Shown here piece by piece: positions 17,834-50,288 of a DNA stretch of 64,000 nucleotides. The translations under genes and the position numbers were made by a program. The DNA lies in NCBI GenBank assembly GCA_965243395.1, contig CBDEUS010000002.1, positions 352,001-416,000 on the forward strand, in the 5' to 3' direction. This DNA is from Gammaproteobacteria bacterium (GTDB taxonomy: Bacteria > Pseudomonadota > Gammaproteobacteria > UBA4575). Position 1 is the first letter of the stretch. Each line of letters starts with the position of its first letter. The notes beneath the pieces are model-generated. The model saw nothing but the letters and a program-made list of their open reading frames with translations. It did not search any database and was not told the DNA's origin.

Positions 17834-17868
17834 TAGATAATTGTACACTTACAAGGTGTTAGGAGCTG

Positions 17869-17899
17869 AAATAGACTTTGTCTAATTTATGTCTATAAT
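17869..17899 (+). promoter_or_regulatory. sigma70 promoter with overlapping palindromic operator
   Basis: TAGACT-16 nt-TATAAT, with palindrome AATAGAC-TTT-GTCTAAT over the -35 element. Confidence 0.5.
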
Positions 17900-17906
17900 T
17901 CTTACT

Positions 17907-18332
17907 ATGAGCGAATTAGAAAAATTCCCTAAAACACGTGCGGATCTAGTCGCTATGCTGCGAAATGCAGACATTACCCCAACCCATCAACGCATCAAAA
18001 TCGGCGAGGTTTTATTTTCTCGCAAACAACATTTATCTGCGGAACAAGTACTCGCGGCAGTTAATCAAGATGATGATGAGGTTTCTAAAGCTACCGTATA
18101 CAACACCTTAGGGGCTTTTGCGCAACATGGTCTATTACGTGAAGTAATTGTTGATCCTTCAAAAGTTTTCTATGACTCTAACTTAAGCAAACATCATCAC
18201 TTATATTATTTAGATACTGGTGAGCTTGAAGATATCGCAGATGAAAATATAGAAGTTTCTAAACTCCCTAATCTACCTAGTGATCTTCAAATTGAAGAAG
18301 TAGATGTCATCATCCGCGTCCATCGCAACTAA
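17907..18332 (+). CDS. Fur-family regulator, Irr-like
   Basis: THQR, HLSAE, VSKATVYNTL, FYDSN..HHH; no CxxC. The ORF track starts at 17889. Confidence 0.85.
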   Translation: MSELEKFPKTRADLVAMLRNADITPTHQRIKIGEVLFSRKQHLSAEQVLAAVNQDDDEVSKATVYNTLGAFAQHGLLREVIVDPSKVFYDSNLSKHHHLYYLDTGELEDIADENIEVSKLPNLPSDLQIEEVDVIIRVHRN

Positions 18333-18589
18333 CTATTAACCTTCCTGCAAGACGCTGTTATTTCTCTGGCTGAGTAGCTCAGCTTTAAACAAGTTAATAG
18401 ATAGGGTTATTATTGACTAAGGAAGTTTGCATATATTGCAAATACAGTTTTTGTAAATCACATTTTGCTTAATATTCAAATAAGTATTCCTTTCATCCCG
18501 AAATTAGTACCGTTCAATTCCATCAGCTTCGCCATACATACTCAAATTTCCTAACCTCCTCAACTTCAAGAGAGAGTCAAGGATGACAA

Positions 18590-18802
18590 ATGAGTGAAGT
18601 AAAAGAGGAGCGCCGCTCGAATGTTGAGCGGAGACAAAACGCGCCTATTGAACATTTCCCCATATTAGATTCAGACGGTAACTTCATCGAAAGTGATCGC
18701 AGAAGTGGTGGAGATCGAAGAACCGACCCACGCACAACTCTGCAGTTTATACGTGTAAATGATGTTTTAGCTAAATTTGCGGAGCTAGATACTAAAGATT
18801 AA
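18590..18802 (+). CDS. Small protein with (D/E)RR repeats
   Basis: EERRSNVERR and DRRSGGDRR; SD AAGGA. Confidence 0.7.
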   Translation: MSEVKEERRSNVERRQNAPIEHFPILDSDGNFIESDRRSGGDRRTDPRTTLQFIRVNDVLAKFAELDTKD

Positions 18803-19474
18803 TTAGTTTGAGTTTAGGTGTCCTGTTTTCACATAAATCACGCAGCCCTCTTTTGTAAAAGGAGTGTGAAAACTATTTGGCGGGTTTCTTAACCATGTAC
18901 CTTCAGGATAACTACCAAACTCATCTTCAAAGGTTCCTTCAAGTACAAATATTTCTTCGCCGCCTATATGTTGATGTGGTTGGAATATAGTATTTGCTTC
19001 CCATTTCACTAAATCAACATGTTCATGCAAGTGTTCATGCAGAGGCATCACACTTAATCCTGGTACAAGTCCAGGTAACCAAGCTTGTTGCTTAGTTTGC
19101 AGATAAAGCTGCTTGGTATCACTCTCTTGAAACTGCTGTAATTTTACAAAAATTGTGCAACCTTCTTTACTAAAAGGTGCATGCGATGTTCCACCTGGAT
19201 TTCTTAAATAACTGCCAGCTTCATAGCTGCCATGGTTATCTGAAAAAGTGCCTTCAAGTACAAATATTTCTTCTCCATATACATGCCGATGGGGTCGAAA
19301 GGCGCTGCCGGCTACATATCGCACTACAGTAGTAACAGGCTCTGGATCCGCATCAATTCTTTCCAGGCGTTTGCGTAACACACCTTCTGCTTCTGAGGCT
19401 TCCCATGGCATGCTTGCCGTTTCTATAACTGCGCGCAAACTATGATCAGCGTTGAGTTCTTGTATGCTTTCCAT
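18803..19474 (-). CDS. ChrR-like tandem cupin protein
   Basis: Two repeats of HxH.GGEEIFVLEGTF.D..G.Y..G..LRNP...H.P. Confidence 0.9.
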   Translation of the reverse strand: MESIQELNADHSLRAVIETASMPWEASEAEGVLRKRLERIDADPEPVTTVVRYVAGSAFRPHRHVYGEEIFVLEGTFSDNHGSYEAGSYLRNPGGTSHAPFSKEGCTIFVKLQQFQESDTKQLYLQTKQQAWLPGLVPGLSVMPLHEHLHEHVDLVKWEANTIFQPHQHIGGEEIFVLEGTFEDEFGSYPEGTWLRNPPNSFHTPFTKEGCVIYVKTGHLNSN

Positions 19475-19507
19475 GTTTAAATAACAAATTAAGAAACTAT
19501 CTAGCCC

Positions 19508-19987
19508 ATGCAGTTGACCGAAAACAAATCAATTCTATTACTTTTATTAGGTCTTGCCACTATATTACTCACCATTGGGCTTGTTGCGCCTATTATTACC
19601 TTCACAAAATTTATGTTTATACATAATACTTTTTCCATTCTAAGTGCTTGCTGGAATTTACTGCTACAAGGACAAGTATTTTTATTTTTAATCATTTTCT
19701 TATTTAGCGTCATCTTGCCTATTCTTAAATTGGGCTTATTAGCAAAATTGATTCTAAGTCCCTTGTTAAGCGAAAGTACAAAAAAGCTTCTGGAATGGAT
19801 ACACCGCTTTGGGAGATGGTCAATGTTAGATGTTTTTGTCGTAGCGATTTTGGTAGTAGTGGTTAAGCTAGGCGCAATTGGTAATGTTGAAAAGCATTAT
19901 GGATTATATGCTTATGCTGGTGCAGCGATTTTAATTATGTGGCTCACCCAACAAATCATTCTATTTGTTAAAAATAATCAAAATTAA
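19508..19987 (+). CDS. Paraquat-inducible protein A (PqiA) single-domain membrane protein
   Basis: FSVILPILK and GRWSMLDVFVVAILV. Confidence 0.85.
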   Translation: MQLTENKSILLLLLGLATILLTIGLVAPIITFTKFMFIHNTFSILSACWNLLLQGQVFLFLIIFLFSVILPILKLGLLAKLILSPLLSESTKKLLEWIHRFGRWSMLDVFVVAILVVVVKLGAIGNVEKHYGLYAYAGAAILIMWLTQQIILFVKNNQN

Positions 19988-20826
19988 TTTGCGTTCCTAA
20001 ACGGCTGTAACAATAAACGATCAAGCCAAAGTTCGCGTTTATCTCTAAAACTTTCGATACCTATTGTCATTTTTAAATGACCCATTTTAGGTTGAGCACG
20101 ATAAGTTCTAAAAATATAGTCCCACCAAGGTAAATTAAAACCAAAATTGCTATCAGTCTCTTTTTGAATAATAGAATGATGCACACGATGCATCTCCGGC
20201 GTAACTACAAATAGTCTCATTATTTTCTCAATAGACTTAGGTATGCGGATATTTGAATGATTGAATAATGAGGTGGCATTAAGCAAGACCTCAAATATTA
20301 ATACTGCAATTACAGGTGCACCTATCAAGGTCACCATGCAAAGTTTTATCCCTAATGACAGGATTATTTCTATCGGGTGAAATCGAACTGCAGTAGTTAC
20401 ATCAAACTCTAAATCAGCATGATGCATGCGATGTAACCGCCACAAAAAACCTACTTTATGAAAAATGACATGTTGTACATATATTGCAAAATCAAGAAAC
20501 AAAACAGCCACAATAATTGAAATCCAATGTGGCATATCAATCATATTTAACAAGCCATAACCTGATGATTGTACAGAAGCGGCTACAAACAGAACCGTTA
20601 CAGGAACGAAAAGCCATGTGATTAATGCATTGATCGTGCTTATTGAAAGATTGTTAACCCAACGGACAGCCTTTGGATATATTTGCATGCGTCGTGGTGC
20701 AATAAGTTCCCATAGGGCAAATACGATAAATAGAGCCAAAAAAATACTAAAACGTATTAATGCTCCGTCGCTTATCATAGATTCAATCATTACAACGCTC
20801 CTAACAAACACTGTAAGGGAAATCAA
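19984..20826 (-). CDS. Sterol desaturase / fatty acid hydroxylase family protein
   Basis: His boxes HVIFH, HRMHH, FNHSN, HRVHH. True start may be internal (~20790). Confidence 0.9.
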   Translation of the reverse strand: MISLTVFVRSVVMIESMISDGALIRFSIFLALFIVFALWELIAPRRMQIYPKAVRWVNNLSISTINALITWLFVPVTVLFVAASVQSSGYGLLNMIDMPHWISIIVAVLFLDFAIYVQHVIFHKVGFLWRLHRMHHADLEFDVTTAVRFHPIEIILSLGIKLCMVTLIGAPVIAVLIFEVLLNATSLFNHSNIRIPKSIEKIMRLFVVTPEMHRVHHSIIQKETDSNFGFNLPWWDYIFRTYRAQPKMGHLKMTIGIESFRDKRELWLDRLLLQPFRNAN

Positions 20827-21303: not shown

Positions 21304-22074
21304 ATGGGCATTGTTGTCAATCTGTTGCTGGTTTTAATCTTTTGCGCTTTCATCAGTGCCTGCAGCACTTCGTCTTCCAGCGGCATGCCTTCTATACCTT
21401 CCACAAATTCTGAGCCTGAAACTGAATCGGAAGCAAGTTCTTCTAATGAACAAAGTTCTAGCGAACAAAAACAAGCAAGTAAAAATAGTGAATCCACTGG
21501 TGCTTCATCAGATGGACAACAAGAACAAGCTGGCGCTGAAAATGATAATGAGCTAGAACAACCCAGTGCACAAACAGATGAAGAAAAGGTTGCAGTACTG
21601 GATGCGCAACTTGAAAAAGAATTACGTGACTATGATGAACAATTACATAAAGAACTTGAAAAAGCTGAAGAGCAAAAACAAGCACAAGAAAAAGAACATG
21701 AGGCAAAAGAAGCTGCAGAAGCAGGTCTAGATGAAGGAGATGAATTTTCTGCAGGGGGAGAAGATACAGAACAAGCAGGTTCAGAAGATGAGCAAATGGC
21801 TAAGGCCGATTCTCAACAGACACCCAAAGGATCAGCAGAAACGACAGAAAATAATTCTAGCCAAGGAAATAAAGGTAAAGGAAATAGCGGAACTGCGCCT
21901 AAAAATATTCCAAGTGGTGATGATGATGACGTTGTCGCCAGGCAACTGCGAGAAGCTGCTGAAAAAGAACAAGACCCCGAGCTAAGAGAAAAACTTTGGG
22001 AAGAATATCGAAAATATAAGCAGCAACAAAGCACTGCAAGTGCACCGCCTTCGAGTGCTACTGATAAACAATAG
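21304..22074 (+). CDS. Acidic, largely disordered lipoprotein
   Basis: Start MGIVVNLL with lipobox ISA-C; Ser/Glu-rich; C-terminal helical motif DDDVVARQLREAAEKEQDPELREKLWEEYRKYK. Confidence 0.8.
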   Translation: MGIVVNLLLVLIFCAFISACSTSSSSGMPSIPSTNSEPETESEASSSNEQSSSEQKQASKNSESTGASSDGQQEQAGAENDNELEQPSAQTDEEKVAVLDAQLEKELRDYDEQLHKELEKAEEQKQAQEKEHEAKEAAEAGLDEGDEFSAGGEDTEQAGSEDEQMAKADSQQTPKGSAETTENNSSQGNKGKGNSGTAPKNIPSGDDDDVVARQLREAAEKEQDPELREKLWEEYRKYKQQQSTASAPPSSATDKQ

Positions 22075-22102
22075 ACAATAGAGCTAACAATTAAAACAGT
22101 TT

Positions 22103-23281
22103 ATGAATAAAAATAATAACTACTACTTTTTTAGTTTACTCCTAATTTTAATTCTTACCGGATGCTCGACTACAGCCGTTAAGGTCAGCGACACCGAAGA
22201 CATTGAAGCTGAAACTGTTCAGTTACAGGAAAGCAAGTTACTGGACGTTGGTATATTGTTATTTGAAGGTGAAATCAGTGAAGAGCAGGTAGAAAAAGAA
22301 GGTGTGCACTATAGCATACGTCAAGCTGAATCGCGTTACATGGCATATCATTTAAAAGAGACTATGCAGCGCTCAAACGGCTGGGGAGCTATACGTGTAT
22401 TACCTGAAAGATCCTACATCGCGGATGTTGTTGTTGCTGGCACCATCATGGCTTCAAACGGTGAAGAAATGATTCTTAAGATCAATGTAGGGGACAGCAC
22501 GGGTGCACAATGGTTTGAGAAAACTTATAAAACTGAAGCGGACGAGGAAGCTTATCGCTATTCAAAGCGTGGTAGAGATGTCTACCAGTATATGTATAAC
22601 CGTATTGCAAATGACATTCGCAAGCACCGAAAAAAACTACCTGAAGATGAGTTAATTACCATACGTAATACTTCTGAACTTCGCTACGCAGCAGGTATTT
22701 CCCCTCAGCCATTTGCTAGCTATGTAAGTACAGGGCCAAATGGACAAAGTAGCATCACGCGTCTACCAGCAAATGATGATCCTATGTTGAACAGGGTGCG
22801 AAAAGTTCGTGATCGTGAGTTTTTATTCATAGATACCATAAACGAACATTACTCGAATTTTTACGGTGCAATGTGGGAGCCGTATGAAAATTGGCGTTAT
22901 TACTACATGATCGAAGCGGAGCAACGCCGCGAAATTGAAAGGCGTGCGAAACAAACCAAGTTTGTTGCAGCACTTATAATGATTGCAGGGGTGATGCGCG
23001 GACCGGGCTTATTTACCACAGGCGCTCTTTTATATAAGAATGGAACAGACATCAGTGAACAAGCAGAGATTCATAATGAAGCCATTCGAGAACTTGGGGA
23101 TTCTTTAGAAGCAGAAGTAAGTCCAATGGTTGTCGAAGTTCAAGGTCGAACCGTTGAGCTAACGGGTTCTATAGAAGAACAGTATCAACAATGGCGTAAG
23201 TTGCTACGCGAAATTTATGTAAATGAAACTGGATTTGCTTATGAAGATACTGTTACAGATACAGAAAGTGCACAACTATAA
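22103..23281 (+). CDS. Hypothetical lipoprotein
   Basis: Lipobox LTG-C; 392 aa; glycine-rich hydrophobic hairpin near the C-terminus. Confidence 0.85.
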   Translation: MNKNNNYYFFSLLLILILTGCSTTAVKVSDTEDIEAETVQLQESKLLDVGILLFEGEISEEQVEKEGVHYSIRQAESRYMAYHLKETMQRSNGWGAIRVLPERSYIADVVVAGTIMASNGEEMILKINVGDSTGAQWFEKTYKTEADEEAYRYSKRGRDVYQYMYNRIANDIRKHRKKLPEDELITIRNTSELRYAAGISPQPFASYVSTGPNGQSSITRLPANDDPMLNRVRKVRDREFLFIDTINEHYSNFYGAMWEPYENWRYYYMIEAEQRREIERRAKQTKFVAALIMIAGVMRGPGLFTTGALLYKNGTDISEQAEIHNEAIRELGDSLEAEVSPMVVEVQGRTVELTGSIEEQYQQWRKLLREIYVNETGFAYEDTVTDTESAQL

Positions 23282-23354
23282 TGATTAATAAACTAAGCTC
23301 GCCTCCTGCATAGCTTTTTGTAGTGACAAGGACGTCGAAAGATCTTAAAAAGCT

Positions 23355-24893
23355 ATGTCTGATAAAGATGTCACTCCGATTGAAGCAATCGATTATGAGT
23401 CATTGCAAAAACCCGCGGAGCAAAATCAAGACTCAGAACAAAATGTAAAAAACAAATCTATATTCTGGATTGTTTTAGTACTACTAATTTTATGCGTGTT
23501 GATGGTGTTTTTATTCTTACCGGAATATGTTGCTGAAAAACGTCAAATTAATAGTTCAGACCTGCAAACACAAAGCGATACTCCGCCAACAGTAGATGTA
23601 GCTGATCCTGAACCTTCATCAGAAACTTCTGTTGAACCTACAAAAAGTTTAACTGCTGAGGAACTAAGTGCGCTTAGACAGGAAGCTGAAATCCTTTTGC
23701 TTCAAATAATCGAAAAACAAAAATTTTTAGAAAGTAAAGCAGTTAAAAAATGGGGTCTAGAAGAATTTAGAAATGCTATATCTTTAGGCGCGAGCGGCGA
23801 CGAACACTATCGCAAACAAGAATACAAACAAGCAATAACAAGCTATAACGACACAGTTAATTTGTTAAGTAAACTAGAGAAACAAGTCGCTCCTACACTT
23901 ACGATGCACTTAGAAAAAGGAGAGCTAGCACTCATACAAGCGGAAAAAATAATTGCTATTCAGCATTTTGAATTGGCCAAGTCTATTGATGAAAAAAATA
24001 CTCAAGCGATTAATGGTTTGAAACGCGCCTCGACTATAGAAGAATTATATTCCTTACTTGAAAAAGGCGGTAAATTAGAAGCAGCAAATAGATTTAGTGA
24101 TGCAAAAAATACTTATGCGCAAGCAACTGAGCTTGACCCTCTATCTCTAGAAGCCAAAGAAGCGCTCAATAGAGTAAAGAGCCGTTTGGCAGAACTAGAA
24201 TTTACTCGCATGATCAATCAAGGTTATGCGTCACTAAAACTTCGCCAATATGGAGATGCAAGGGCAGCGTTTAAAACTGCACAAGAATTGTTTCCAAACT
24301 CTGACAAACCTAAACAGGGCTTGGCTCGCATAGAGCGAGCTATTTTGGAAGAAAAAATAGCTTCACTAACAGCTGAAGCACAGCATTTTGAAAATGCGCA
24401 AAATTGGACTAACGCAGCAAATAGCTACCAACAACTTCTTGCATTAAATCCAAATTCTGCATCAGCGCAACAAGGCTTGCAGCGCAACCAAGAGCGCGAA
24501 CAAATTCTTTCAAGTTTAACTAACCACATCGAAAATAAATTGCGCTTAAGTTCTGATTCTGTTGCGAACGATGCTAAGAAACTTTTGAATAAAATAGAAT
24601 TGCTGGATAACCCTGGTAGTAAAATAGAACAAGGGGCTTTGACCTTACAAGAGCTTTTAGTATTAGCAAACAGACCTATATTAATTACTTTACATTCTGA
24701 CAACCAAACGGATGTTGCTATTTATAAAGTGGGCAAGTTCGGAAAATTTGACAGTCGTGAAGTCGAACTAAAGCCAGGAAAATATACGATTGTCGGCTCT
24801 CGTTCCGGTTTTCGCGATGTGCGCAAAGTAGTAACTATAATGGCAGAAATGACGGATACAACGATTCAAGTGCGCTGTGAAGAGCCGATTTAA
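23355..24893 (+). CDS. Single-TM TPR protein with C-terminal PEGA-like beta domain
   Basis: TM at aa ~36-56; TPR-like repeats (YAQATELDP, YQQLLALNPNSASAQQGL); 'LKPGKYTIVGSRSGFRD'. Confidence 0.85.
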   Translation: MSDKDVTPIEAIDYESLQKPAEQNQDSEQNVKNKSIFWIVLVLLILCVLMVFLFLPEYVAEKRQINSSDLQTQSDTPPTVDVADPEPSSETSVEPTKSLTAEELSALRQEAEILLLQIIEKQKFLESKAVKKWGLEEFRNAISLGASGDEHYRKQEYKQAITSYNDTVNLLSKLEKQVAPTLTMHLEKGELALIQAEKIIAIQHFELAKSIDEKNTQAINGLKRASTIEELYSLLEKGGKLEAANRFSDAKNTYAQATELDPLSLEAKEALNRVKSRLAELEFTRMINQGYASLKLRQYGDARAAFKTAQELFPNSDKPKQGLARIERAILEEKIASLTAEAQHFENAQNWTNAANSYQQLLALNPNSASAQQGLQRNQEREQILSSLTNHIENKLRLSSDSVANDAKKLLNKIELLDNPGSKIEQGALTLQELLVLANRPILITLHSDNQTDVAIYKVGKFGKFDSREVELKPGKYTIVGSRSGFRDVRKVVTIMAEMTDTTIQVRCEEPI

Positions 24894-24911
24894 TTAAAAA
24901 TTACAAAACAT

Positions 24912-27329
24912 ATGATTGAACAAGTTTGTATAACTGATCATAAAGGGCCTAGGTTTTATACCCATGCAGACTTTCCTTTATCTATAGGATCGGATGCAAA
25001 TGCGGATTTAGAGGTGCCTGTCATTGATGAAAATTCCAGGCAAAAACAAAAGCCTGCTTTCTTAATTATTATTGTTAACCGAACTTATATTGATGCCGAT
25101 AATTCAAATATTAAAATTCTTCTCAACAACGAACCTGTTTCTGGACAAAAAGAACTCCAACATGATGATATTTTAGAAATAGAAGGTTCAGCCTTTCACT
25201 GTGAACATATTGGTGACACGCTCTCTATTTCTTTGTATGAAAATGATGCTCATTTAGTTAGCCAAAATGAAGCAATTGCCTCTGATGGGGAAATAATCGA
25301 ACCTATTGAAATATCAGAACCTATTAAAGAAAAAAAATCTAATCGAAGATTTAAAAGTTTTTTTGTTGTTATTGGAATATTGATATTTGGTTTACTAGTA
25401 GTTGTTATAGGCTATATTTTTACTGCTAAAACTTTATTAATTGAAATAGAGCCTGCTCCTGATCGACTTGCGTTACATGGAAATGTTTGGCCGATCAAAA
25501 TTCGAGATCGTTATCTTGTACAACCTGGAAATTATTTTATTGAAGCAAGCAAAGATGGTTACCGGCCTTTAGAAAAAGAAATTAAAGTTAGTAATCATCA
25601 ATCGCAAACTTTATCGTTTACTTTAGAAAAAAAACCAGGCTATCTAAATATTACGAGTCAACCTGAGAAAGAAGTCGAAATTACTATTGATAGTCTAAAG
25701 ATAGGCGCAACTCCGATACAATCTTTAGAGCTCGAAGCTGGAACTTATAACTTAGAAGCCACAGCTGAGCGTTATCAACCTTATAGCACTCAATTAATCA
25801 TTGAGGGAAAAGAGCTGGAACAAAATTTAAATGTTGAACTACTTCCAGACTGGGCGGAAGTATTAATCGATTCACAACCCGCAGGCGCCGAAATTTGGTT
25901 AGATGGAGAAAAAAAGGGGGTTACACCCCAATCTTTCGAGTTGGATTCAGGACAATACAGTTTAGAACTTAGACACAAAGATTTTTTGCCTTATGAAAAA
26001 GAATTCTTCGTTGATGCCAACCAACCTATAAATCTCCCCGTAGCCGAATTATTTACTAACCCAAGCCATTTGGTCATTACTAGCACTCCCTCAAAAGCAA
26101 TTGTTGAAATTGCGGGTGAAGAACAAGGGATAACACCATTTACTTTACGATTAAGCCCTAACATCGAACACAGCATTACTCTCAGCAAACCTGGGTTTAG
26201 ATCAAATCAGCAAACCGTAACTTTAAAGCCGGGAGAACAACAGAATATTTCTGCTACTTTGGAAGCGATATTAGGCACGGTGGTTCTTAACATCGAACCA
26301 CAAGATGCCGAAATTTTTATTAACGGTAAATTTATGGGAAGTGGAAACGTAAAATTATCCTTACCTAGCGCAAGTCAACGCCTAGAAATAAGAAAGTCTG
26401 GCTATCAAGTTTTTGAAAGAATGATTTCTCCAGCAGCTGACTCTCCTCAAGTACTAGATGTAACTTTATCGCGCATCACTAGTACATCCGATATTAGTAA
26501 ACCTAAGACTTTGCGTACTTCCGAAGGACAAGAGCTAAAATTAATTTTTGGAGGTAAATTTTCTATGGGTGCTGCACGCCGTGAACAAGGACGGCGCTCT
26601 AATGAAACCTTACATACTGTAGAATTAGTTAAACCGTTCTATGTCAGTGTGCATGAAATTACCAACCAGCAATATTTAGTCTTTAATAGTTCGCATAGCT
26701 CGGGTTCATATAAAGGTCATGATCTATCTACGGGAAAATTGCCAGTAGTAAATATTAGTTGGGAAGAGGCTGCACGTTACTGTAATTGGTTAAGCATTAA
26801 AGATGGGCTAGAACCCGTTTACCGTGAAAATAATGGTAAGTTAATTGCTAAAAATCCTATACCTTCTGGTTATCGTCTGCTTACGGAAAGCGAGTGGGAA
26901 TGGGTTGCGCGGGTTAAAAGCAATAATCAAGTATATCGATATGAATGGGGAAACAGTTTTCCTCCCGATAAAGTTACCGGGAATTATGCGGATCAATCTG
27001 CTAAAGATTTATTAGACCCCATACTACCTGATTATCAGGACAGTTTTATTGTTGCAGCACCTGTAGGAAGTTTTGCCGCTAATCATTTCGGAATTTTTGA
27101 TATGGGCGGTAATGTTGCAGAATGGTGTCATGATTATCATAGTATCTACCCTAGTTTAAGTGATGAAATCTTCACGGACCCGGTTGGTCCAAATACAGGT
27201 GATAAGCATGTAATTCGTGGTGCATCATGGATGCGGGGGGATTTGAGCAGTACACGTTTAAGCTACCGTGATCGAGATAACACTAAACGCACTGATGTTG
27301 GCTTTCGAATTGCGAGATATATAGACTAA
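24912..27329 (+). CDS. FHA-like / TM / multi-PEGA / FGE-sulfatase (SUMF1) domain protein
   Basis: 'ITSQPE..I.IDG...G.TP' repeats; FGE motifs FSMG, HEITNQQY, LPVVNISWEEA..YCNWLS, DMGGNVAEW, RGASW, GFR. Confidence 0.9.
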   Translation: MIEQVCITDHKGPRFYTHADFPLSIGSDANADLEVPVIDENSRQKQKPAFLIIIVNRTYIDADNSNIKILLNNEPVSGQKELQHDDILEIEGSAFHCEHIGDTLSISLYENDAHLVSQNEAIASDGEIIEPIEISEPIKEKKSNRRFKSFFVVIGILIFGLLVVVIGYIFTAKTLLIEIEPAPDRLALHGNVWPIKIRDRYLVQPGNYFIEASKDGYRPLEKEIKVSNHQSQTLSFTLEKKPGYLNITSQPEKEVEITIDSLKIGATPIQSLELEAGTYNLEATAERYQPYSTQLIIEGKELEQNLNVELLPDWAEVLIDSQPAGAEIWLDGEKKGVTPQSFELDSGQYSLELRHKDFLPYEKEFFVDANQPINLPVAELFTNPSHLVITSTPSKAIVEIAGEEQGITPFTLRLSPNIEHSITLSKPGFRSNQQTVTLKPGEQQNISATLEAILGTVVLNIEPQDAEIFINGKFMGSGNVKLSLPSASQRLEIRKSGYQVFERMISPAADSPQVLDVTLSRITSTSDISKPKTLRTSEGQELKLIFGGKFSMGAARREQGRRSNETLHTVELVKPFYVSVHEITNQQYLVFNSSHSSGSYKGHDLSTGKLPVVNISWEEAARYCNWLSIKDGLEPVYRENNGKLIAKNPIPSGYRLLTESEWEWVARVKSNNQVYRYEWGNSFPPDKVTGNYADQSAKDLLDPILPDYQDSFIVAAPVGSFAANHFGIFDMGGNVAEWCHDYHSIYPSLSDEIFTDPVGPNTGDKHVIRGASWMRGDLSSTRLSYRDRDNTKRTDVGFRIARYID

Positions 27330-27342
27330 GTGAGTAAACGTT

Positions 27343-27597
27343 ATGATGAATTTGTGTAAATTATTTATTTATATCGTTACTCTGCTTGCATTTACTTTCA
27401 CGATAGTTAACGCAGAAGAAAACGATGGGAATCAAGATGATCAAACTAAAGAAGAACAAGTAACTGAAACAGCTAACAAGGAAAAATCTGTTAAACAAAA
27501 TGCTAATAAACGCAGTCAGGTAAAAACACTAGAAAAATTCATTCCTTCAGAAGAAGTCTCAGCGGATAAGCCTGTAGCATTTCCTGCTGATATCTAA
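27343..27597 (+). CDS. Small secreted protein
   Basis: Signal peptide, charged linker, C-terminal FIPSEEVSADKPVAFPADI. Confidence 0.75.
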   Translation: MMNLCKLFIYIVTLLAFTFTIVNAEENDGNQDDQTKEEQVTETANKEKSVKQNANKRSQVKTLEKFIPSEEVSADKPVAFPADI

Positions 27598-27616
27598 TCA
27601 TCATCAATAATAAAAT

Positions 27617-28414
27617 ATGAAAAAAAATTTTCCATTCGAGTTTATATATCAAATTTTTAGTTTGTTAATAATAATTATCATTGTCCACGCAGCGTATGTT
27701 GCTGTAATCCGGCCTAATGCAGAAGCTGAGCTTGAGCAACAAGCAGCACAAATTAATATTGATAAAGACTATGTGCCTAAACGATCTATTTATGTACTGA
27801 TCCGTGACTATGAACAAGAAGCCTGCTTTATTCTAATGTTTTGGGCTTTATGTATTATGGCCTTCAAAAGTATGAACCTATTTCGCGAGCGCAGCTTATT
27901 AGACAAAGATTTGCTGCATGCAAAAGAAGGAATAAAGTTTTTACCTCAAGATACTCGAGAATTATCGAGGCAAATTCAAAATCTGCCTGAAGACGAACAA
28001 AAATATTTATTGCCCAGAGCACTGAACGTTGCATTGCATCGCTTCAGTTCAACACAAAATATCCAGGATGTGTCTTCAGCAACCACTAATGTATGTGAGT
28101 CTGAATCAGAGCGCCTCGATTCTGAGCTTTCTATTATTCGATACATTACTTGGGCTATTCCATCAATAGGCTTTCTTGGCACTGTGCGAGGTATTGGTGA
28201 TGCATTAGGCCAAGCCCATAAAGCAGTCGAAGGTGACATCGCTGGAGTTACAGAAAGCCTGGGTGTTGCATTTAATTCAACGCTTATTGCATTGTGTATC
28301 AGTATTGTACTGATGTTTATTGTGCATCAATTACAGCTTCTGCAAGAAAGGTTTATCTTAGATACACAGAACTATTGTAATAACAATTTAATTCGGCACT
28401 TACAGGTTAGTTAG
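27617..28414 (+). CDS. MotA/TolQ/ExbB proton-channel family protein
   Basis: WAIPSIGFLGTVRGI and LGVAFNSTLIAL TM hairpin with both conserved Thr. Confidence 0.92.
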   Translation: MKKNFPFEFIYQIFSLLIIIIIVHAAYVAVIRPNAEAELEQQAAQINIDKDYVPKRSIYVLIRDYEQEACFILMFWALCIMAFKSMNLFRERSLLDKDLLHAKEGIKFLPQDTRELSRQIQNLPEDEQKYLLPRALNVALHRFSSTQNIQDVSSATTNVCESESERLDSELSIIRYITWAIPSIGFLGTVRGIGDALGQAHKAVEGDIAGVTESLGVAFNSTLIALCISIVLMFIVHQLQLLQERFILDTQNYCNNNLIRHLQVS

Positions 28415-28423
28415 GTCGCTGAT

Positions 28424-29785
28424 GTGTTCACTATCAATCCCATTATCATTGAATGTTATGACAATGGAATACGCATCTGTGATGATGAGAAAATTCTTGC
28501 TGATAGCGCAAGCTTTGCATTAATTGAAACAAGTCGACACGTTACCGTAGGTCCTTCTGCTCAACAACAAGCTCATCTTCGTCCTCGTGAAGTCAGCACA
28601 ACATTTTGGAGCGACTTATCAGCTAACAGCACTACTAAGCATGTTGTAAGTAATGCCGAGCTCGCACTTAATCATTTACATTATGTTTTACAGCAAGCCA
28701 ATTGCTCGGATCAAGATGCCATAGTTATCACTCCCGCAACATTTGATAAACATCACTTAGGTTTACTGCTTGGCATTTGTGAAAAACTGCCCATCAAAAT
28801 TGTCGGTATCGTCTGCAACGCTACGCTTGCGATGCAAGGATTTATTGATGATTGCAAAGCTGTATATTTAGATTTATTACAACGAAAATTAGTCTTGACA
28901 GAACTTATTCATAGTAATTCTGGTGTCGAATTAAAAACACCCAGTCGAATTTTTGATTATGGCTTACAGGACTTTGTGCATAACATCGCAAAATTAATTG
29001 CTGACAAATTTGTTGCAGAAACGCGCTTTGATCCTTTGCATATTGCAAAACATGAGCAACAACTTTTTGATAAATTGCCACTTTGGTTGAATATGTTAAA
29101 AAACACGGATAGCACTGAGTGCAATTTATCCACTGAGGACGAATCATTTTCCATAAATATAAGCCAACAACAACTGCAACAAGCTAATCACCAGCAATTT
29201 GATAAAATTGCAGCTTATCTTAATGTGCTTTTCCACAACCATGATGCGATAGCCATTTATTGTTCATCAAGTTGTCAGCAAGTATTTGGTATGCAAAATT
29301 TCTTTTCGAACTTGCCAGGTTGTGCAGTAATACAGCTTGAAGATGATTCTTTAGCTAAAAATGCTTTGCTTAATAAAGATGAAATTATAAGCAAGGAGCA
29401 GGTTTTATACGTAAATAGTTTACCTTGGCATTCTAAATTTAAGCCCGACACTTTATCTTTTAATCCTGGGAAAATATCTAACCTTTCAAGTTTACCTACA
29501 CATATCTTGATTGATGGTCATGCATATGGCTTACAACAAGATATTTATATTGCGCATGACAGGTCTTCAAAATTGTTAATCACACTTGAACAGACATCTG
29601 AGAGCTTATGCAAAATTTCATCTAATAACTTAAGTGTAGATGTTGAGATTTTAAATTCTATAAAAATACAAATGAATTCGATTTCAGTAGAAAATAATGT
29701 GCACGCAAAAATAGGCGACACATTAGCTGTTCAGGACTGTTTGACACATTGTCGGTTTATAAAAGTGGTAGAGCATGAAGCGTAG
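28424..29785 (+). CDS. Degenerate actin/Hsp70-fold protein with C-terminal FHA-like beta domain
   Basis: N-terminus resembles the DnaK/MreB lobe (SASFAL...VTVGPSAQQQAHLRP; AIVITPATF; LLLGI; KFVAETRFDP). C-terminal 'MNSISV...KIGDTL'. Confidence 0.6.
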   Translation: MFTINPIIIECYDNGIRICDDEKILADSASFALIETSRHVTVGPSAQQQAHLRPREVSTTFWSDLSANSTTKHVVSNAELALNHLHYVLQQANCSDQDAIVITPATFDKHHLGLLLGICEKLPIKIVGIVCNATLAMQGFIDDCKAVYLDLLQRKLVLTELIHSNSGVELKTPSRIFDYGLQDFVHNIAKLIADKFVAETRFDPLHIAKHEQQLFDKLPLWLNMLKNTDSTECNLSTEDESFSINISQQQLQQANHQQFDKIAAYLNVLFHNHDAIAIYCSSSCQQVFGMQNFFSNLPGCAVIQLEDDSLAKNALLNKDEIISKEQVLYVNSLPWHSKFKPDTLSFNPGKISNLSSLPTHILIDGHAYGLQQDIYIAHDRSSKLLITLEQTSESLCKISSNNLSVDVEILNSIKIQMNSISVENNVHAKIGDTLAVQDCLTHCRFIKVVEHEA

Positions 29786-30863
29786 ATCCGTAAATGCTTT
29801 TAATTTAGCTTTTTTGGATGTCATGTTTTGTGGTTTTGGTGCTGTGATACTATTTTTTATGATCATTAATGCTAATACACATGAAAGAAGAGATAAAATA
29901 AATTACGAAGTCACAGGTGAAGTAAATAAACTAGATAAGGAGGTTATAGGCGCACAAAAATTTTTAGTGGAATTGAAAAATTCTTTACAAGAAACAAATG
30001 ATGAGCTGATTCAAGCACAAGGTAAGTCACATGAAGTTATCGAAAATATTAAAAAGAATAAAGATCAGCTTGCAAAATTAGACAAAAACACATTAGCCAA
30101 GTTAGAAAGCATAGAAAAACTAAAGGCGGATTTAAAATCGATTGAAGAAGAGAATCAACGTCTTGAAGGTGGTGCAGAAAAGCTATTAGAAGGTGAGCGT
30201 CTAAGGCAATTTTCTGGTACAGGGCATCGTCAATACTTAACTGGACTAAAAATGGGAGGTGAACGAATATTGATTCTAGTGGACACTTCCGCCAGCATGC
30301 TAGCAGATCGAATTGTTAATGTTCTACGTTTTCGAAATTTGCCTCCTGATGAACGCGTACGCGCAGCCAAATGGCAACAGGTACTTTATACCGTAGATTG
30401 GATTACCACACGCATACCAACTACAAGTAAATTTCAAATTTACAGTTTTAATGAAACGACTTCTGCAACATATGAAGTGGAAGGAGAGCAGTGGTTAGAT
30501 GGAGGAAATATAAAACACCTCGACACTGCAGTACATAATTTATTTCAAATAGCACCTGAAAAAGGTACCAATCTTTATAAAGCATTTGAAAGTATTAACC
30601 AGTTCTCTCCTCCGCCTGACAATATTTATTTGCTAACAGATGGCTTGCCTACAAAAGGTCCCTCGATAAGCTTTGGAAATAAAGTAAGCTCAAAACAGCG
30701 TAAAAAATTATATTCTAAAGCTATACAAGAACTACCAGGTGGCATCCCTGTAAATATCATTTTATTTCACATGGAGGGGGATCCGTTGGCTGCTAGTGAA
30801 TTTTGGAAATTGGCGCAAAATTCTAATGGTGCCTTCTTCAGTCCTGCAAGAGATTGGCCCTAA
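29775..30863 (+). CDS. ExbD-like TM + coiled coil + vWA protein
   Basis: N-terminal TM 'LAFLDVMFCGFGAVILFF'; MIDAS DTSAS...GT...TDG. Confidence 0.88.
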   Translation: MKRRSVNAFNLAFLDVMFCGFGAVILFFMIINANTHERRDKINYEVTGEVNKLDKEVIGAQKFLVELKNSLQETNDELIQAQGKSHEVIENIKKNKDQLAKLDKNTLAKLESIEKLKADLKSIEEENQRLEGGAEKLLEGERLRQFSGTGHRQYLTGLKMGGERILILVDTSASMLADRIVNVLRFRNLPPDERVRAAKWQQVLYTVDWITTRIPTTSKFQIYSFNETTSATYEVEGEQWLDGGNIKHLDTAVHNLFQIAPEKGTNLYKAFESINQFSPPPDNIYLLTDGLPTKGPSISFGNKVSSKQRKKLYSKAIQELPGGIPVNIILFHMEGDPLAASEFWKLAQNSNGAFFSPARDWP

Positions 30864-30887
30864 GACATTGGTTTTGACATTATTACT

Positions 30888-31895
30888 ATGAAACGACGTC
30901 GAAATATTGAAATATTTAGTTTGTCTTTTTTAGACTGCGTTTGTTGCGGCTTTGGTGCACTGATCTTATTGCTAGTGTTATCCAAAACTGCGGAACCAGT
31001 AATTTTTGAAGAGTATTCGCTCGATCTAGAAAACATATTAGCCAAGTTACAAACCGAGCTGTTTGAAATTCGTGGTGAAACTCATATTTTAAATCGTGAT
31101 TTAGTCACAAAAAAACAACAGCTTTCCGAAGAAGTTGAAAAAATTGCATTACTTCAAGCAGATTTATCTTCTATTCTTGGAAAATTCGCTGCTTCAAAAG
31201 ATAGTTCAAATATACAAAACAAAATTGAACAGCAACTGGCAACTGCCAAACAAGACCTCACGGAAGAGATGCGTCGATTACAAGAACAACAAAGCAGGCC
31301 CAGAACAGAATTTGACGATACAGTTGGAGGAATTCCGGTAGATAGCGAATACATTATTTTTATAATTGATACCTCAGGAAGTATGTTTAACCATGGCTGG
31401 GGTTCCGTTATACAAAAACTCTCTGAAGTTTTAGACATCTACCCCAAGGTTAAAGGTATTCAAGTAATGAATGATATGGGTGAATATATGTTCGCCCAAT
31501 ACACAGGAAAATGGATCCCAGATACACCAGCAAGACGTAAAGCAATTATTAAACGCATGCGTAAATGGCAAGCTTTTAGTAATAGCAGTCCTGTTGAAGG
31601 TATCACAGCCGCGATTAATACATTCTATTCAAAAAATAAAAAAATCAGTTTATATGTGTTCGGTGATGAATTTACCGGTCCTTCGATTCAATCCGTGTTA
31701 CACGAAGTGAGTCAACTTAATCCTAAAAATACTAATGGTAAGCGTCGAGTTCGTATTCATGCAGTAGGGTTTCCGATTCAGTTCAGTCGCCCCGATAGTG
31801 AGCAGGGTACCGGAGTTAGATTTGCCACTTTAATGCGAGCATTATGCGAGCAAAATGGCGGTACATTTGTAGGTCTAAATTCTCATTATCCCTGA
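30888..31895 (+). CDS. ExbD-like TM + coiled coil + vWA protein (paralog)
   Basis: N-terminal TM 'LSFLDCVCCGFGALILLL'; DTSGSM; VFGDE; RIHAVGFP. Confidence 0.88.
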   Translation: MKRRRNIEIFSLSFLDCVCCGFGALILLLVLSKTAEPVIFEEYSLDLENILAKLQTELFEIRGETHILNRDLVTKKQQLSEEVEKIALLQADLSSILGKFAASKDSSNIQNKIEQQLATAKQDLTEEMRRLQEQQSRPRTEFDDTVGGIPVDSEYIIFIIDTSGSMFNHGWGSVIQKLSEVLDIYPKVKGIQVMNDMGEYMFAQYTGKWIPDTPARRKAIIKRMRKWQAFSNSSPVEGITAAINTFYSKNKKISLYVFGDEFTGPSIQSVLHEVSQLNPKNTNGKRRVRIHAVGFPIQFSRPDSEQGTGVRFATLMRALCEQNGGTFVGLNSHYP

Positions 31896-32109: not shown

Positions 32110-32682
32110 ATGTCATTTCCTAATTCACATGCAACATTCAATTCAATTTATTTGCGGAGTTTATTCAAGTACACCTTAATTTTCATTGCCAGCAGCCTGC
32201 TGATTAGCGCCTGCAGCGGTGATAAAGAAGATGTACCTGTTGAAAAAGAAGTAACTGAAACTGTTGTTCCGGAAAGCACAAAAGCTACTTCAAACGACAT
32301 TGCTTCTGAAATTCAAGTGAATAGAGAAAAATGGATGGCGCATGAAATTAGTAGTTACCAGATTGAGATGCAGAAAATCTGCTATTGCGTTCCTGAAGTT
32401 GTACGCATGATGGTGTTTGAAGTTGACGAAAATGAAGTGGTATCTGTGCGTTATGCAGACACTGGTGAAGATGTCGATCCACAACACTACGGTGACTTTA
32501 ATACGATTGAAAGCATGTTTACGTTTGTTGAAAAGGCCTTGGAAAAAGATCCAGCCGATCTGTCCATCGCATATCACGATAAGTATGGATACATAAAGGA
32601 AATGAGTGTGGATTTTAAAAAGAACATTGCTGACGATGAGATTTCAATTATCGCCTCAAATATGAGGCCAAAAGAAAATTAG
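32110..32682 (+). CDS. Lipoprotein, DUF6174-like
   Basis: Lipobox ISA-C; W...ISSY......CYC; Y...YGY....VD....IADDE. Confidence 0.7.
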   Translation: MSFPNSHATFNSIYLRSLFKYTLIFIASSLLISACSGDKEDVPVEKEVTETVVPESTKATSNDIASEIQVNREKWMAHEISSYQIEMQKICYCVPEVVRMMVFEVDENEVVSVRYADTGEDVDPQHYGDFNTIESMFTFVEKALEKDPADLSIAYHDKYGYIKEMSVDFKKNIADDEISIIASNMRPKEN

Positions 32683-32688
32683 GTATTT

Positions 32689-34638
32689 ATGCGATTAGGA
32701 GTTGGAACACTAATCTTTTTACTTTCGAGCTTAATTACAAACTTTGCATATGCAGCTCCTGAAGTAAACGATTTAACCATCAATGTAGATGGTATCGATT
32801 ATGCTATTGAACTTAAAAAAAGTTCTTTCGCAAAGCGTATACAGGTCAATCTAGATACTGAAAGTGACGAAAACCAACCGAGTATAGAACTCTACCAAGG
32901 CGATGTGCCAGAAGTACCTGATAGTTGGGTAGCCGCTTCCTACTATGATGGTGAATGGCAAGGACTTGCATCCATTCACGATAAATTATACGAGCTAAAA
33001 GGTTTTGGAATGTCGGGAACAGCGCTTGCCGTTCTTGATGGTGATGAATCTGTTTCCATGCAAGCAGATGAACTTGATCTCTCTGGTGATTTTGATATTC
33101 ATACAATGTGCGCGATGCCACATGCTTATAACGATGCGGCGGCTAGCACTTTAGCTTCTATTCTTCCTAACGCTAACGCGGTTAACAATAATGGCACAGG
33201 ACAAGGTAATGTAGCTTTTGCCGTAGGCGCTATTACACAAGCCGTCAACGTAGTGTTAGCACTCGATCAATTTCACACGGCACAGTATGCAGATTCTGTA
33301 CAACGCGCCATGCGTATTATCAATAATGTTGATGCTATTTATCGTAATAGCTTGGGTATCGCTATTAATAACACTGCGATACTAAGCTTTGATAACAACA
33401 ATCCATTATTTGCTGGTATAACCGACGCGGAAGTTATTTTAGACCAAGCTATTCTTAATCAAGGCAATGTATTTGGAAATAATCCACGCACACTAGGTGC
33501 ACTGCTCACTGCGAGAGATATACAAGTACCTTTGATAGGTAACGGCGTTGCAGGCATTGCACCTTTAAATGCCACATGTACTATCATCAATGGATTCGAT
33601 ATTGCGGTGAGTGTAAATGAAGATCGTGCATCTGAAGGTGTAGCATCTGTCATATTGGCGCATGAAATGGGCCATAACTTTGGCGCCGAACATGATGGCC
33701 CTCCTAACAATGCGGCATGCCCCGTCAGCACTTTTATTATGTCGCCGGTGGTAGCAAATGGGCTAAATGCATTTTCACAATGTTCGAGAGATGAGATCAA
33801 TGCACATATTGCAAATGGAACTTGTTATAAAGAACCTATCGATATTGCTTTAGCTCGCTTTGGAGCACCACCACCTGATAACTTGGCTCAGTTACAAGAA
33901 ATTACACGTCAAATATCCATATCAAATAACGGTACTGTGGCTGTCGCCAATGTGCAAATTGATGGGGATATCGACAATGTAGCCCTTGCCAGATTTACCG
34001 AAGTTACCGTAAATGGTGCAGCGTGCACTTTGTTAGCTGCAGGCAAATCCTATCAATGCAACCTTGCTTCGATTGCTGCAGCCACGCAACAAATTATCAA
34101 CGAAAAAGTTCAGGTAGTTGGGTTAGGCACATTTAATTTCAGTGCAAACTTTGATAGCTCGGATGTCACGCAACGCATCGATATCGTTACTAACAATCAA
34201 TTTGTTACCGATAGTCGTACCGCGAACCAAGCAGCCGTAGCGCCTGTTGCACCTTCTGGTTTAAGTGCCAGCGCACAAAATACAGGTGACATTGCATTAA
34301 CATGGGCTGACAATAGTAACAACGAACTAAATTTCCAAGTACAACGTTCGACTGGGGGCGGCGCATTTGCAGTTATTGCAAATCTAGCCGCAAACGCAAC
34401 ATCCTATACTGACAGTAATAGCAACTTAACAGTGGGTACAGCTTACACCTATCAAGTAATTGCCACGAATGCGATAGGCAGTTCGCCTTCAAATCAATCC
34501 ACTGCAACAGCATTAGAACCTACTGTAGCGGCAAGCCCTGCACCTTCATCAGATGACAGTGGTGGTGGCGGCGGCGGTGCCATCTATTTATTTTCAGCAA
34601 TTCTGTTACTTGCAAGATTAGTGCGACTCGCTCGTTAA
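32689..34638 (+). CDS. M12B/reprolysin-like zinc metalloprotease with FN3 domain and GlyGly-CTERM anchor
   Basis: HEMGHNFGAEHD, Met-turn FIMSP, FN3 'LTWADNSNNE..FQVQRS', C-terminal SGGGGGG-TM-RLVRLAR. Confidence 0.9.
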   Translation: MRLGVGTLIFLLSSLITNFAYAAPEVNDLTINVDGIDYAIELKKSSFAKRIQVNLDTESDENQPSIELYQGDVPEVPDSWVAASYYDGEWQGLASIHDKLYELKGFGMSGTALAVLDGDESVSMQADELDLSGDFDIHTMCAMPHAYNDAAASTLASILPNANAVNNNGTGQGNVAFAVGAITQAVNVVLALDQFHTAQYADSVQRAMRIINNVDAIYRNSLGIAINNTAILSFDNNNPLFAGITDAEVILDQAILNQGNVFGNNPRTLGALLTARDIQVPLIGNGVAGIAPLNATCTIINGFDIAVSVNEDRASEGVASVILAHEMGHNFGAEHDGPPNNAACPVSTFIMSPVVANGLNAFSQCSRDEINAHIANGTCYKEPIDIALARFGAPPPDNLAQLQEITRQISISNNGTVAVANVQIDGDIDNVALARFTEVTVNGAACTLLAAGKSYQCNLASIAAATQQIINEKVQVVGLGTFNFSANFDSSDVTQRIDIVTNNQFVTDSRTANQAAVAPVAPSGLSASAQNTGDIALTWADNSNNELNFQVQRSTGGGAFAVIANLAANATSYTDSNSNLTVGTAYTYQVIATNAIGSSPSNQSTATALEPTVAASPAPSSDDSGGGGGGAIYLFSAILLLARLVRLAR

Positions 34639-35131: not shown

Positions 35132-35596
35132 TTATAGTGTTTCACACTTGCCACGAACCATTACAACATCATCTTTTGATTTCTCACTTAAAAAAGCATT
35201 GACATAAGTATAGACAAATCTCTTTCTTGCGGGCTCATAATAAAAGCTCTCATTAAGTCGATCATAATGCCCGGAATAAACACCACGAAAATAACTTGGA
35301 TATCCATACGGGGTCGGCTCTTCGTCAAACGGACCAAAGTCGAATCTATTTTTCCCATCCTGTACTGTAATATATAACATGTATTTTTCTACATGCGCTT
35401 GAGTAAGAGAGTCATCTTCATCTTTATTCCATCCGGTAACCGCACTTGGTATACAAAGCCACTTACCCACAATGTTTGGATCTAGTTTTTCATCTGCTGC
35501 AATTGCATGACCTGCAAATAAATAAAATATTAATACCCATCTCATACTTTTCTCTATCTCATTGATCAAGGTAATCATGTAAGACTTTTCCTTCAT
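35132..35596 (-). CDS. Hypothetical exported protein
   Basis: Signal peptide MRWVLIFYLFAGHAIA suggests an internal start (~35545). Confidence 0.55.
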   Translation of the reverse strand: MKEKSYMITLINEIEKSMRWVLIFYLFAGHAIAADEKLDPNIVGKWLCIPSAVTGWNKDEDDSLTQAHVEKYMLYITVQDGKNRFDFGPFDEEPTPYGYPSYFRGVYSGHYDRLNESFYYEPARKRFVYTYVNAFLSEKSKDDVVMVRGKCETL

Positions 35597-36404: not shown

Positions 36405-36443
36405 TCATCTAATTATTATCAGTAATAAAAACACACCTAATAT

Positions 36444-50286: not shown

Positions 50287-50288
50287 AT

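Follow-up and report, generated by a model that had tools for sequence, protein, structure and literature searches.

What work is done by a run of nine bacterial genes in which a TolQ/ExbB/MotA-type channel subunit stands among lipoproteins, an Hsp70-fold protein and a pair of membrane-anchored von Willebrand factor A (vWA) proteins? The run, here termed g1 to g9, occupies positions 21304-31895 on the forward strand of a 64,000-nt stretch of DNA (the window) from an uncultured marine Gammaproteobacteria bacterium (GenBank assembly GCA_965243395.1, contig CBDEUS010000002.1, positions 352,001 to 416,000). An original prediction for this DNA had proposed an uncharacterised trans-envelope apparatus powered by the proton-motive force (PMF). 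Our analysis supports a PMF-powered, trans-envelope apparatus: the nine genes probably encode a single machine of this kind, organised around a motor of the 5:2 type. To our knowledge, Gram-negative bacteria have no means other than ion-driven 5:2 motors of performing work at their outer membrane, which lacks an energy source. Each class of such motors described earlier (Ton, Tol, Mot, Gld, Agl and Zor) opened a field.

The proteins g1-g9 were scanned against Pfam, NCBIfam and PADLOC, and lipoboxes, the signal peptide and transmembrane (TM) helices were read from the translations. The nine consecutive open reading frames (ORFs) all point in the same direction (Table 1). Gaps between successive genes from g1 to g7 were 28, 73, 18, 13, 19 and 9 bp, g7 and g8 overlapped by 11 nt, and g8 and g9 lay 24 bp apart; the array had been predicted as co-directional with gaps under 75 bp, and the ORF list bears this out. 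A divergent spacer of ~480 bp lies 5′ of the cluster and a spacer of 214 bp lies 3′ of it. The scan for promoters and terminators was uninformative, with 22 promoter-like sites against 43 expected and 14 terminator-like sites against 11 expected.

The synteny of the cluster is far beyond chance. Its core comprises seven genes (g1, g2, g3, g4, g6, g8 and g9), with g5 and g7 outside it. A locus search with the single g7 sequence returned no relatives, and the closer g7 alignment was used instead. The best 80 of the 163 relatives obtained with this alignment form set 1, in which 54 loci had enough flanking sequence to be testable. All seven core genes were present in 54/54 of these, in the order and on the strand seen in the window in 51; the exceptions were three Lysobacterales loci with g2 relocated behind g9. 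Set 2 was seeded by g9 of the form that lacks g7 and comprises the best 80 of at least 560 relatives, 53 of them testable. Here the seven core genes occurred in order in 39 loci and rearranged in 2; g1 was undetectable in 10 loci, g3 in one, and g1-g3 together in one. The genes thus co-occur across genomes, as the original prediction required. In both sets, g8 and g9 were always found together.

With at least 560 relatives in one scan and at least 549 in a further one, the number of species with the cluster is several hundred or more. In an exhaustive HMMER search, g9 yielded 339 clusters (50% identity) at E <= 1e-30. Among 400 sampled genomes of the class, the g9 profile was found in 36 and the g7 profile in 19 (16 of them strong matches), counts that include one unpublished genome (G039). 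Carriers belong to the Alpha-, Gamma- and Zetaproteobacteria, Nitrosomonadaceae, Desulfobacteraceae, Binatia and Acidobacteriota. Named carriers include Methylophaga, Glaciecola, Agaribacter, Alteromonas, Pseudoalteromonas, Sneathiella, Magnetovibrio, Aestuariispira, Mariprofundus and Candidatus Endobugula.

Two forms of the cluster were distinguished by the presence of g7. Eight loci with a weak or absent g7 match all retained the ordered cluster, with g1 or g3 undetected in a few. Six of the eight lacked any g7, so that the channel gene was followed directly by the vWA pair, and the other two encoded a g7 of 307-308 aa without an FHA domain. The cytoplasmic module is missing from most of set 2, and the Asp and Thr residues and the channel stay invariant there.

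The evidence for a motor comes from g6, g8 and g9. PF01618 was matched by g6 alone among the nine proteins, well above its cut-off (Table 1). Two threonines of g6, T189 and T222, were invariant in 24/24 sequences (alignment A6), and in the profile alignment to E. coli TolQ they correspond to T145 and T178, respectively. The cores of TM2 and TM3 were also invariant (66 g6 sequences and alignment A6). The source genome (2.58 Mb, 2 contigs, 100% complete) contains five MotA/ExbB genes including g6. Each of the other four adjoins ExbD- or MotB-type genes, g6 being the sole exception, and all four ExbD matches of the genome are located away from the cluster. Pfam scans of g1-g9 gave no match to ExbD, MotB or OmpA families, nor to TonB/TonB_C, TolA, TolB, Pal/OmpA or TonB-dependent receptors, in agreement with the predicted absence of TonB/TolA, TolB/Pal and TonB-dependent-receptor partners and of an OmpA-like anchor. 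No NCBIfam family was above its cut-off on any of the nine proteins, and nothing credible was found on g1, g2, g5, g7 or g9 in Pfam, NCBIfam or PADLOC.

Elsewhere in the genome (contigs C1 and C2; L169-L172), the paralogues of g6 form an ExbB-ExbD pair, a tolQ-tolR pair, an ExbB with two ExbD genes and a MotA-MotB pair. A 328-aa ORF after the tolQ-tolR pair was labelled TolA-like from its position alone.

The candidate partners of the channel are g8 and g9, which are paralogous over their full length (hhalign 99.8%, E 9.9e-30). Both begin with a basic tail followed by a TM helix with F-L-D, and the motif F-L-D-x-x-x-C-G-[FL]-G-A, including the membrane Asp, was invariant in 28/28 g8/g9 N-termini. 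This helix shares its topology and a hydrophobic-L/I-D-V/I pattern with the genome's own ExbD/TolR helices, which suggests kinship between the two kinds of axle helix. The stalk of g8 contained 38 heptad windows against a mean of 1.4 and a maximum of 23 in shuffled sequences, a crude count that supports a coiled coil. In the C-terminal heads of both proteins, the D-x-S-x-S of the metal-ion adhesion site (MIDAS) and the later Thr/Asp positions are kept (69 g8 and 53 g9 sequences). The VWA_2 match of g8 fell below the cut-off (24.0 vs 27 bits, 6.2e-5) and g9 had no Pfam match; in Atlas, the named clusters closest to the g9 head are vWA families (0.92), and some g9 homologues are named 'VWA domain-containing protein' in databases. 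The residues expected of a 5:2 motor are thus conserved in all three proteins, in line with the ion-motor reading proposed at the outset.

Several results weigh against this assignment. The g6 profile reached E. coli TolQ only at E 0.076, and a single-sequence phmmer search with g6 against the PDB gave no match. The profile of the g8/g9 N-termini matched no ExbD/TolR chain in the PDB. The vWA call combines a sub-threshold Pfam match, motifs, language-model features and database names of homologues; in the PDB, the g8 and g9 profiles matched no vWA chain at E < 0.1 and retrieved coiled-coil proteins only, together with a weak match to the vWA of ITIH4 (E 0.29). The heptad count of g9 (5 windows) was no stronger than that of shuffled sequences. 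Finally, the patchy distribution (g9 in 36 of 400 genomes) would also fit an accessory or defence-type system.

The motor core has a computational precedent in 'Origin and Evolution of Bacterial Periplasmic Force Transducers' (Mol Biol Evol 2025; PMC12204202). Passages of this paper describe TM-tethered vWA genes ('TPH-vWA'), mostly in heterologous pairs, that adjoin tolQ-like genes without tolR or exbD and show a conserved Asp and a conserved Thr ring. Its AF3 models put the helices of the vWA pair inside a TolQ-like pentamer, and rotation is predicted. The family is said to occur 'predominantly throughout Proteobacteria and Verrucomicrobia', and no function is assigned to it in these passages. 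As far as they go, g6, g8 and g9 match the described motors feature by feature: g6 is a tolQ-like gene without adjacent tolR, exbD or motB, and g8 and g9 appear from their sequences to be two different vWA proteins, each with an Asp-bearing N-terminal TM helix. The match is by description, not by sequence, since Idiomarina, the seed of that study, was not among the best 80 of at least 560 or the best 80 of at least 549 relatives found here.

The window differs from the published arrangement in that g7 separates the tolQ-like gene from the vWA pair; the passages of PMC12204202 cover the tolQ and vWA genes only. They mention no lipoprotein, PEGA, FGE, FHA or Hsp70-like partner, although figures or supplements of the paper may show some. 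New relative to these passages are the core of seven genes, the forms of the cluster with or without g7 and the model of g4-g7 docking. The term 'uncharacterised' in the original prediction holds for experiments, and the 2025 prediction of the tolQ-like channel with paired TM(Asp)-vWA proteins reduces the novelty of the motor core. Searches of PADLOC, NCBIfam and the literature revealed no experimentally characterised match, as had been supposed; PMC12204202 was the sole relevant paper found, and the consulted parts of PMC7159879 and PMC12505986 contain nothing on the cluster.

Table 1. Genes of the cluster and regions within g4 and g7, with positions in the window (the g1 ORF is 21220/21304-22074).
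Feature	Position	Strand	Description
g1	21304..22074	+	Lipoprotein: lipobox, long acidic low-complexity linker, short highly conserved C-terminal acidic/helical motif
g2	22103..23281	+	Lipoprotein: lipobox, N-terminal alpha/beta domain, then long helical hairpin with Gly-rich tip
g3	23355..24893	+	Bitopic inner-membrane protein: short cytoplasmic tail, TM helix, periplasmic helical/TPR region, C-terminal beta domain
g4	24912..27329	+	FHA-like domain, candidate docking peptide, TM helix, 5 PEGA, non-catalytic FGE-type domain
g4 residues 1-100	24912..25211	+	Cytoplasmic FHA-like domain without the usual GR / SxxH residues
g4 residues 115-134	25254..25313	+	Juxtamembrane peptide, G-E-x-I-E-P type; modelled dock site for g7
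g4 residues 544-802	26541..27317	+	FGE/C-type-lectin-like domain without the two catalytic cysteines
g5	27343..27597	+	84-aa secreted accessory protein, cleavable signal peptide
g6	27617..28414	+	TolQ/ExbB/MotA-type proton channel subunit, 265 aa; PF01618 54.8 bits vs cut-off 22.9
g7	28424..29785	+	
g7 residues 1-340	28424..29443	+	Hsp70/actin-superfamily nucleotide-binding-domain fold; glycine-rich phosphate loops not conserved
g7 residues 345-445	29456..29758	+	FHA-like beta sandwich; weak profile matches to Ki-67, EmbR
g8	29775..30863	+	TolR/ExbD-like TM helix, invariant Asp15; heptad-rich stalk ~35-145; vWA head with MIDAS
g9	30888..31895	+	g8 paralogue: TM helix with invariant Asp16, stalk, very conserved vWA-like head with MIDAS

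The cytoplasmic protein g7 has 116 detectable relatives, and PF00498 (FHA) was matched on distant ones. For a model built from an alignment of 71 of the 116 (pLDDT 92.9), the top Foldseek matches were all Hsp70/Hsp110 chains, the best at E 3.3e-18; for chains that consist of the nucleotide-binding domain alone, the root-mean-square deviation (rmsd) was ~4 and the TM-target 0.63-0.71. At the positions of the Hsp70 phosphate loops, the family alignment reads E-x-Y-D-x-G and L-D-L-L-Q, compared with what we take to be the canonical Hsp70 motifs. Because these positions are not glycine-rich, g7 is probably not an ATPase, as far as its sequence indicates. The suggested analogy with the Agl-Glt system and MreB was not upheld, the fold of g7 being of the Hsp70 type and not of the MreB type, and no Glt homologue was seen. 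The predicted list of parts (lipoproteins, TM-TPR protein, FHA-TM-PEGA-FGE protein, channel and TM(Asp)-vWA pair) stood, but it had missed the C-terminal FHA-like domain of g7. Distant relatives retain the phosphothreonine-binding residues of this domain, which are replaced or deleted in the clade of the window.

Structure prediction points to g4 as a candidate membrane anchor of g7. The complex of g4(1-160) with g7 scored 0.71, against 0.36 for the best control; 58 of 80 solved complexes and 2 of 110 mismatched pairs attain that mark. Across the prediction runs, contact agreement was at least 41% and partner pLDDT at least 84. The modelled contact lies not on the FHA domain of g4 but on the peptide just before its TM helix (Table 1), and on the g7 side it involves residues 76-82, 108-121, 169-176 and 326-332, a surface that includes the most conserved helix of g7 (L-G-L-L-L-G). 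A loose pattern of the peptide motif preceded the TM helix in 68/72 g7-bearing versus 2/55 g7-lacking loci, and a strict pattern in 48/72 versus 0/55; as a point against the docking model, the pattern was defined after the g7-bearing sequences had been viewed and the loci are related, which makes the contrast descriptive and not a statistic. Taken as a model, these results support binding of g7 to the juxtamembrane peptide of g4.

The same parts could be read as a trans-envelope sensor or signalling device. The periplasmic FGE and vWA domains and the lipoproteins would then sense an envelope cue, in the manner proposed for periplasmic sensing by TagQ/TagR/PpkA of the Pseudomonas H1 type VI secretion system (T6SS); the FHA and Hsp70-fold domains would relay it in the cytoplasm, and g6 would serve as a scaffold or gated channel. 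The two FHA-type domains of g4 and g7, the canonical phosphothreonine-binding residues of distant g7 relatives and the missing Hsp70 phosphate-binding loops of g7 agree with such a relay, and the set of FGE, vWA, lipoprotein and FHA recalls the T6SS threonine-phosphorylation pathway. We nevertheless consider this explanation unlikely, as no kinase, phosphatase or output domain was found in the cluster (Pfam) or among the named flanking families. Moreover, the absence of the cytoplasmic module from most of set 2, with channel, Asp and Thr residues invariant, fits ion-coupled work better.

In distant loci, the g1 match is restricted to the C-terminal ~45-75 residues, and no Pfam family scored above its cut-off. 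For g2, the profile found no solved relative by sequence, and Atlas returned unnamed clusters only. The AF2 model of g2 (pLDDT 80.9) placed its N-terminal domain close to FlgT of the Vibrio LPHT ring (VIA Z 11.0, 171 aligned, rmsd 5.1), PelC (Z 10.0, 113 aligned, rmsd 2.5) and the N-domain of TolB (Z 9.6, 102 aligned, rmsd 2.7), all exceeding the stated VIA background of Z = 7-8. Resemblance to CsgG, PqiC, LptE and TraT was also seen (VIA), and the Foldseek value was 1.8e-5. The modelled g2 fold would be typical of outer-membrane lipoproteins, several of them ring-forming; sharing this fold is no proof of a function. On g3, TPR_2 was matched at 4.4e-12 (Pfam), the TM helix follows a basic stretch and the C-terminal beta domain is conserved. 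The small protein g5 was correctly predicted to be secreted and carries a signal peptide, and it proved accessory, being matched in 30/80 loci of set 1 and 3/80 of set 2 (tblastn).

In g4, the largest of these proteins, a basic stretch precedes an internal TM helix, and there is no lipobox. Pfam matches covered PEGA in five stretches (2.5e-52) and FGE-sulfatase (1e-40). The FHA-like domain predicted at its N-terminus was recovered by a profile (A3) search of the PDB, in which the top matches were FHA domains (EmbR 3.8e-4, Ki-67 5e-4), but this domain is optional and was present in 33/64 g7-bearing loci. Co-occurrence of the FHA domains of g4 and g7 was considered and rejected, since g4 lacks the domain in 31 of these 64 loci. 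The C-terminal domain of g4 aligns to solved FGEs at 1.7e-17 and to PorK structures at 5e-15. Comparison with Streptomyces FGE showed the catalytic Cys pair replaced by Arg and Ser, which rules out a catalytic formylglycine-generating enzyme.

More distant g7-bearing loci of set 1 contain two extra lipoprotein genes without a Pfam family (31 and 29 loci; e.g., L021:13512-14868 and L023:10494-11282) and, upstream in 28 loci, a gene whose TPR product weakly matches TonB_C. All three are missing from the window's cluster. In L023, L026, L027, L032 and L047, ~2 kb of extra DNA separates g7 from the channel gene, and in L023 this DNA holds a copy of the 262-aa lipoprotein gene.

The FGE-type domain also bears on a second explanation, an engine for surface motility, adhesion or secretion like GldLM-GldKN of the type IX secretion system (T9SS) and gliding, or like Agl-Glt, in which the axle would drive an outer-membrane ring with the FGE protein. 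Its best NCBIfam match is GldK/PorK (TIGR03525, 7.9e-29), the architecture is comparable in combining a motor and its long periplasmic shaft with lipoproteins and an FGE protein, and the fold of g2 is common to ring lipoproteins. However, all GldK/GldJ scores remained far below their cut-offs (101.2 vs 350 bits for TIGR03525) and g4 is anchored in the inner membrane instead of being a lipoprotein; on these two grounds, g4 was ruled out as a T9SS GldK/PorK. Together with the absence of any translocon, beta-barrel, adhesin or cargo gene conserved with the cluster, and with carriers that include symbionts and planktonic lineages, this makes a dedicated engine of that kind improbable.

The surroundings of the cluster are unrelated to it. 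Upstream in the window (16736-20826) lie genes for a DAO-type FAD oxidoreductase, a Fur-family regulator and a ChrR-like cupin, a PqiA-family ORF and, on the opposite strand, a fatty-acid hydroxylase gene. The PqiA-family ORF is a fragment of 159 aa, far below the usual PqiA length, and the fatty-acid hydroxylase adjoins the cluster in 12/20 nearest loci. On the same strand 3′ of g9 (32110-34638), a gene for a DUF6174 lipoprotein is followed by one for an M12B reprolysin-like metalloprotease with fn3; this pair stands behind the cluster in 13/20 nearest loci (L001-L020) and in 0 more distant loci (tblastn). Further downstream (35559-37077), an acetoacetate decarboxylase family gene on the minus strand and a MerC-family mercury-transport gene were found. 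Two 2-kb bins of the window (40001-42000 and 50001-52000) had a G+C content of 0.45 and 0.44 versus ~0.38 over most of it. Some of the high-GC flanking ORFs were scanned with Pfam and showed no match. In the flanks of set 2, no family was conserved, the most widespread occurring in 8/50 loci.

Anti-phage defence of the Zorya kind, with a MotAB-like motor sensing envelope perturbation at infection, would suit the patchy distribution, the lack of conserved flanking genes and the weak PADLOC matches to ZorA (1.2e-4) and ZorB (5.4e-3), but it is very unlikely, given that these matches cover the generic MotA region (ZorA, 19 bits) or the g5 signal peptide (ZorB, 14 bits), that neither a ZorC/ZorD-like gene nor another nuclease or effector gene was found, that g6 lacks a long cytoplasmic tail, that the neighbours are of the housekeeping type in the window and in another locus (L084), and that sequence conservation is high across phyla. 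Identity with Zorya itself (ZorABCD) was rejected, as PADLOC detected no credible defence family.

We therefore return to the PMF-driven trans-envelope machine. In this model, the inner-membrane channel would be a ring of five g6 copies, and a g8/g9 heterodimer would take the place of TolR/ExbD as the axle, each helix carrying a proton-binding Asp. From there, g8 and g9 would extend into the periplasm as long helical stalks ending in vWA heads with an intact MIDAS. Proton flow would turn or pull the axle, and the vWA heads would move with it close to the outer membrane. Likely partners of the heads are the FGE-type head of g4 on its five PEGA domains, the ring-fold lipoprotein g2 and g1, a tethered lipoprotein with its conserved acidic motif at the C-terminus; the TPR protein g3 may serve as a scaffold. 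In the variant present in the window, the Hsp70-fold/FHA protein g7 is modelled to dock on the juxtamembrane peptide of g4, where it would probably act as a regulator or localiser.

For the physiological role, which we assign with much lower confidence than the machine itself, the cluster may transduce PMF-dependent force to outer-membrane lipoproteins in a Tol-Pal-like maintenance or remodelling of the envelope. We favour this role over secretion, gliding and defence, since genes for a cargo, a pore or an effector are not conserved alongside the cluster, which makes a dedicated cargo system less likely.

A more far-reaching version is put forward tentatively and with some doubt. The cluster might represent a further widespread class of proton-driven trans-envelope machine beside Ton, Tol, Mot, Gld/Por, Agl and Zor, in which the axle itself, a TolR-like heterodimer with coiled coils and MIDAS-bearing vWA heads, is the periplasm-spanning shaft. 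This shaft would work against a static PEGA column with an FGE cap and a ring of the FlgT/PelC-fold lipoprotein, moving the tethered acidic lipoprotein at the outer membrane or releasing it there. In some lineages, the catalytically dead Hsp70-fold/FHA protein on the cytoplasmic tail of the column might then serve as a phosphorylation-sensitive clutch.

For a class known as 'tolQ plus two vWA genes', the cluster supplies a fuller parts list of seven linked genes and an optional cytoplasmic module. Cultured carriers make its function directly testable, among them Litorivivens lipolytica CECT 8654, Glaciecola punicea ACAM 611 and Alteromonas sediminis U0105, as well as Sneathiella litorea and Magnetovibrio blakemorei MV-1. 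Of these, Litorivivens lipolytica has the g7-bearing form and the other four the form without g7.

Compared with known systems, the cluster shares with Zorya ZorAB a MotAB-family channel outside flagella and weak PADLOC matches, but lacks the ZorA tail, the peptidoglycan-binding domain of ZorB, and ZorC/ZorD. With GldLM/PorLM and GldK/PorK-PorN, it would have in common a 5:2-type motor with a dimeric partner that itself crosses the periplasm, as well as an FGE-fold protein, non-catalytic and close to the outer membrane; it differs in that no homology to GldL, GldM, GldN or SprA was found and in that g4 is a bitopic inner-membrane protein with PEGA domains. The g7-g4 model resembles what we take to be the arrangement of PilM and PilN in type IV pili, where an actin/Hsp70-superfamily protein is held by a short cytoplasmic peptide of a bitopic protein. 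Unlike PilM, g7 is nearest to Hsp70 nucleotide-binding domains, without their phosphate loops, and carries an FHA-like domain.

Tol-Pal differs from the cluster in having TolA, the TolB beta-propeller and an OmpA-like Pal, none of which was detected in g1-g9 by Pfam or NCBIfam. In the cluster, axle and stalk form one polypeptide that ends in a vWA head, and the genome encodes a separate tolQ-tolR pair. The likenesses to Tol-Pal comprise a TolQ-type channel that keeps both ring threonines, a predicted axle helix bearing an Asp and a long periplasmic helical stalk, together with outer-membrane lipoproteins, a TPR protein encoded alongside, comparable to CpoB, and an N-terminal domain of g2 with the fold of the TolB N-domain.

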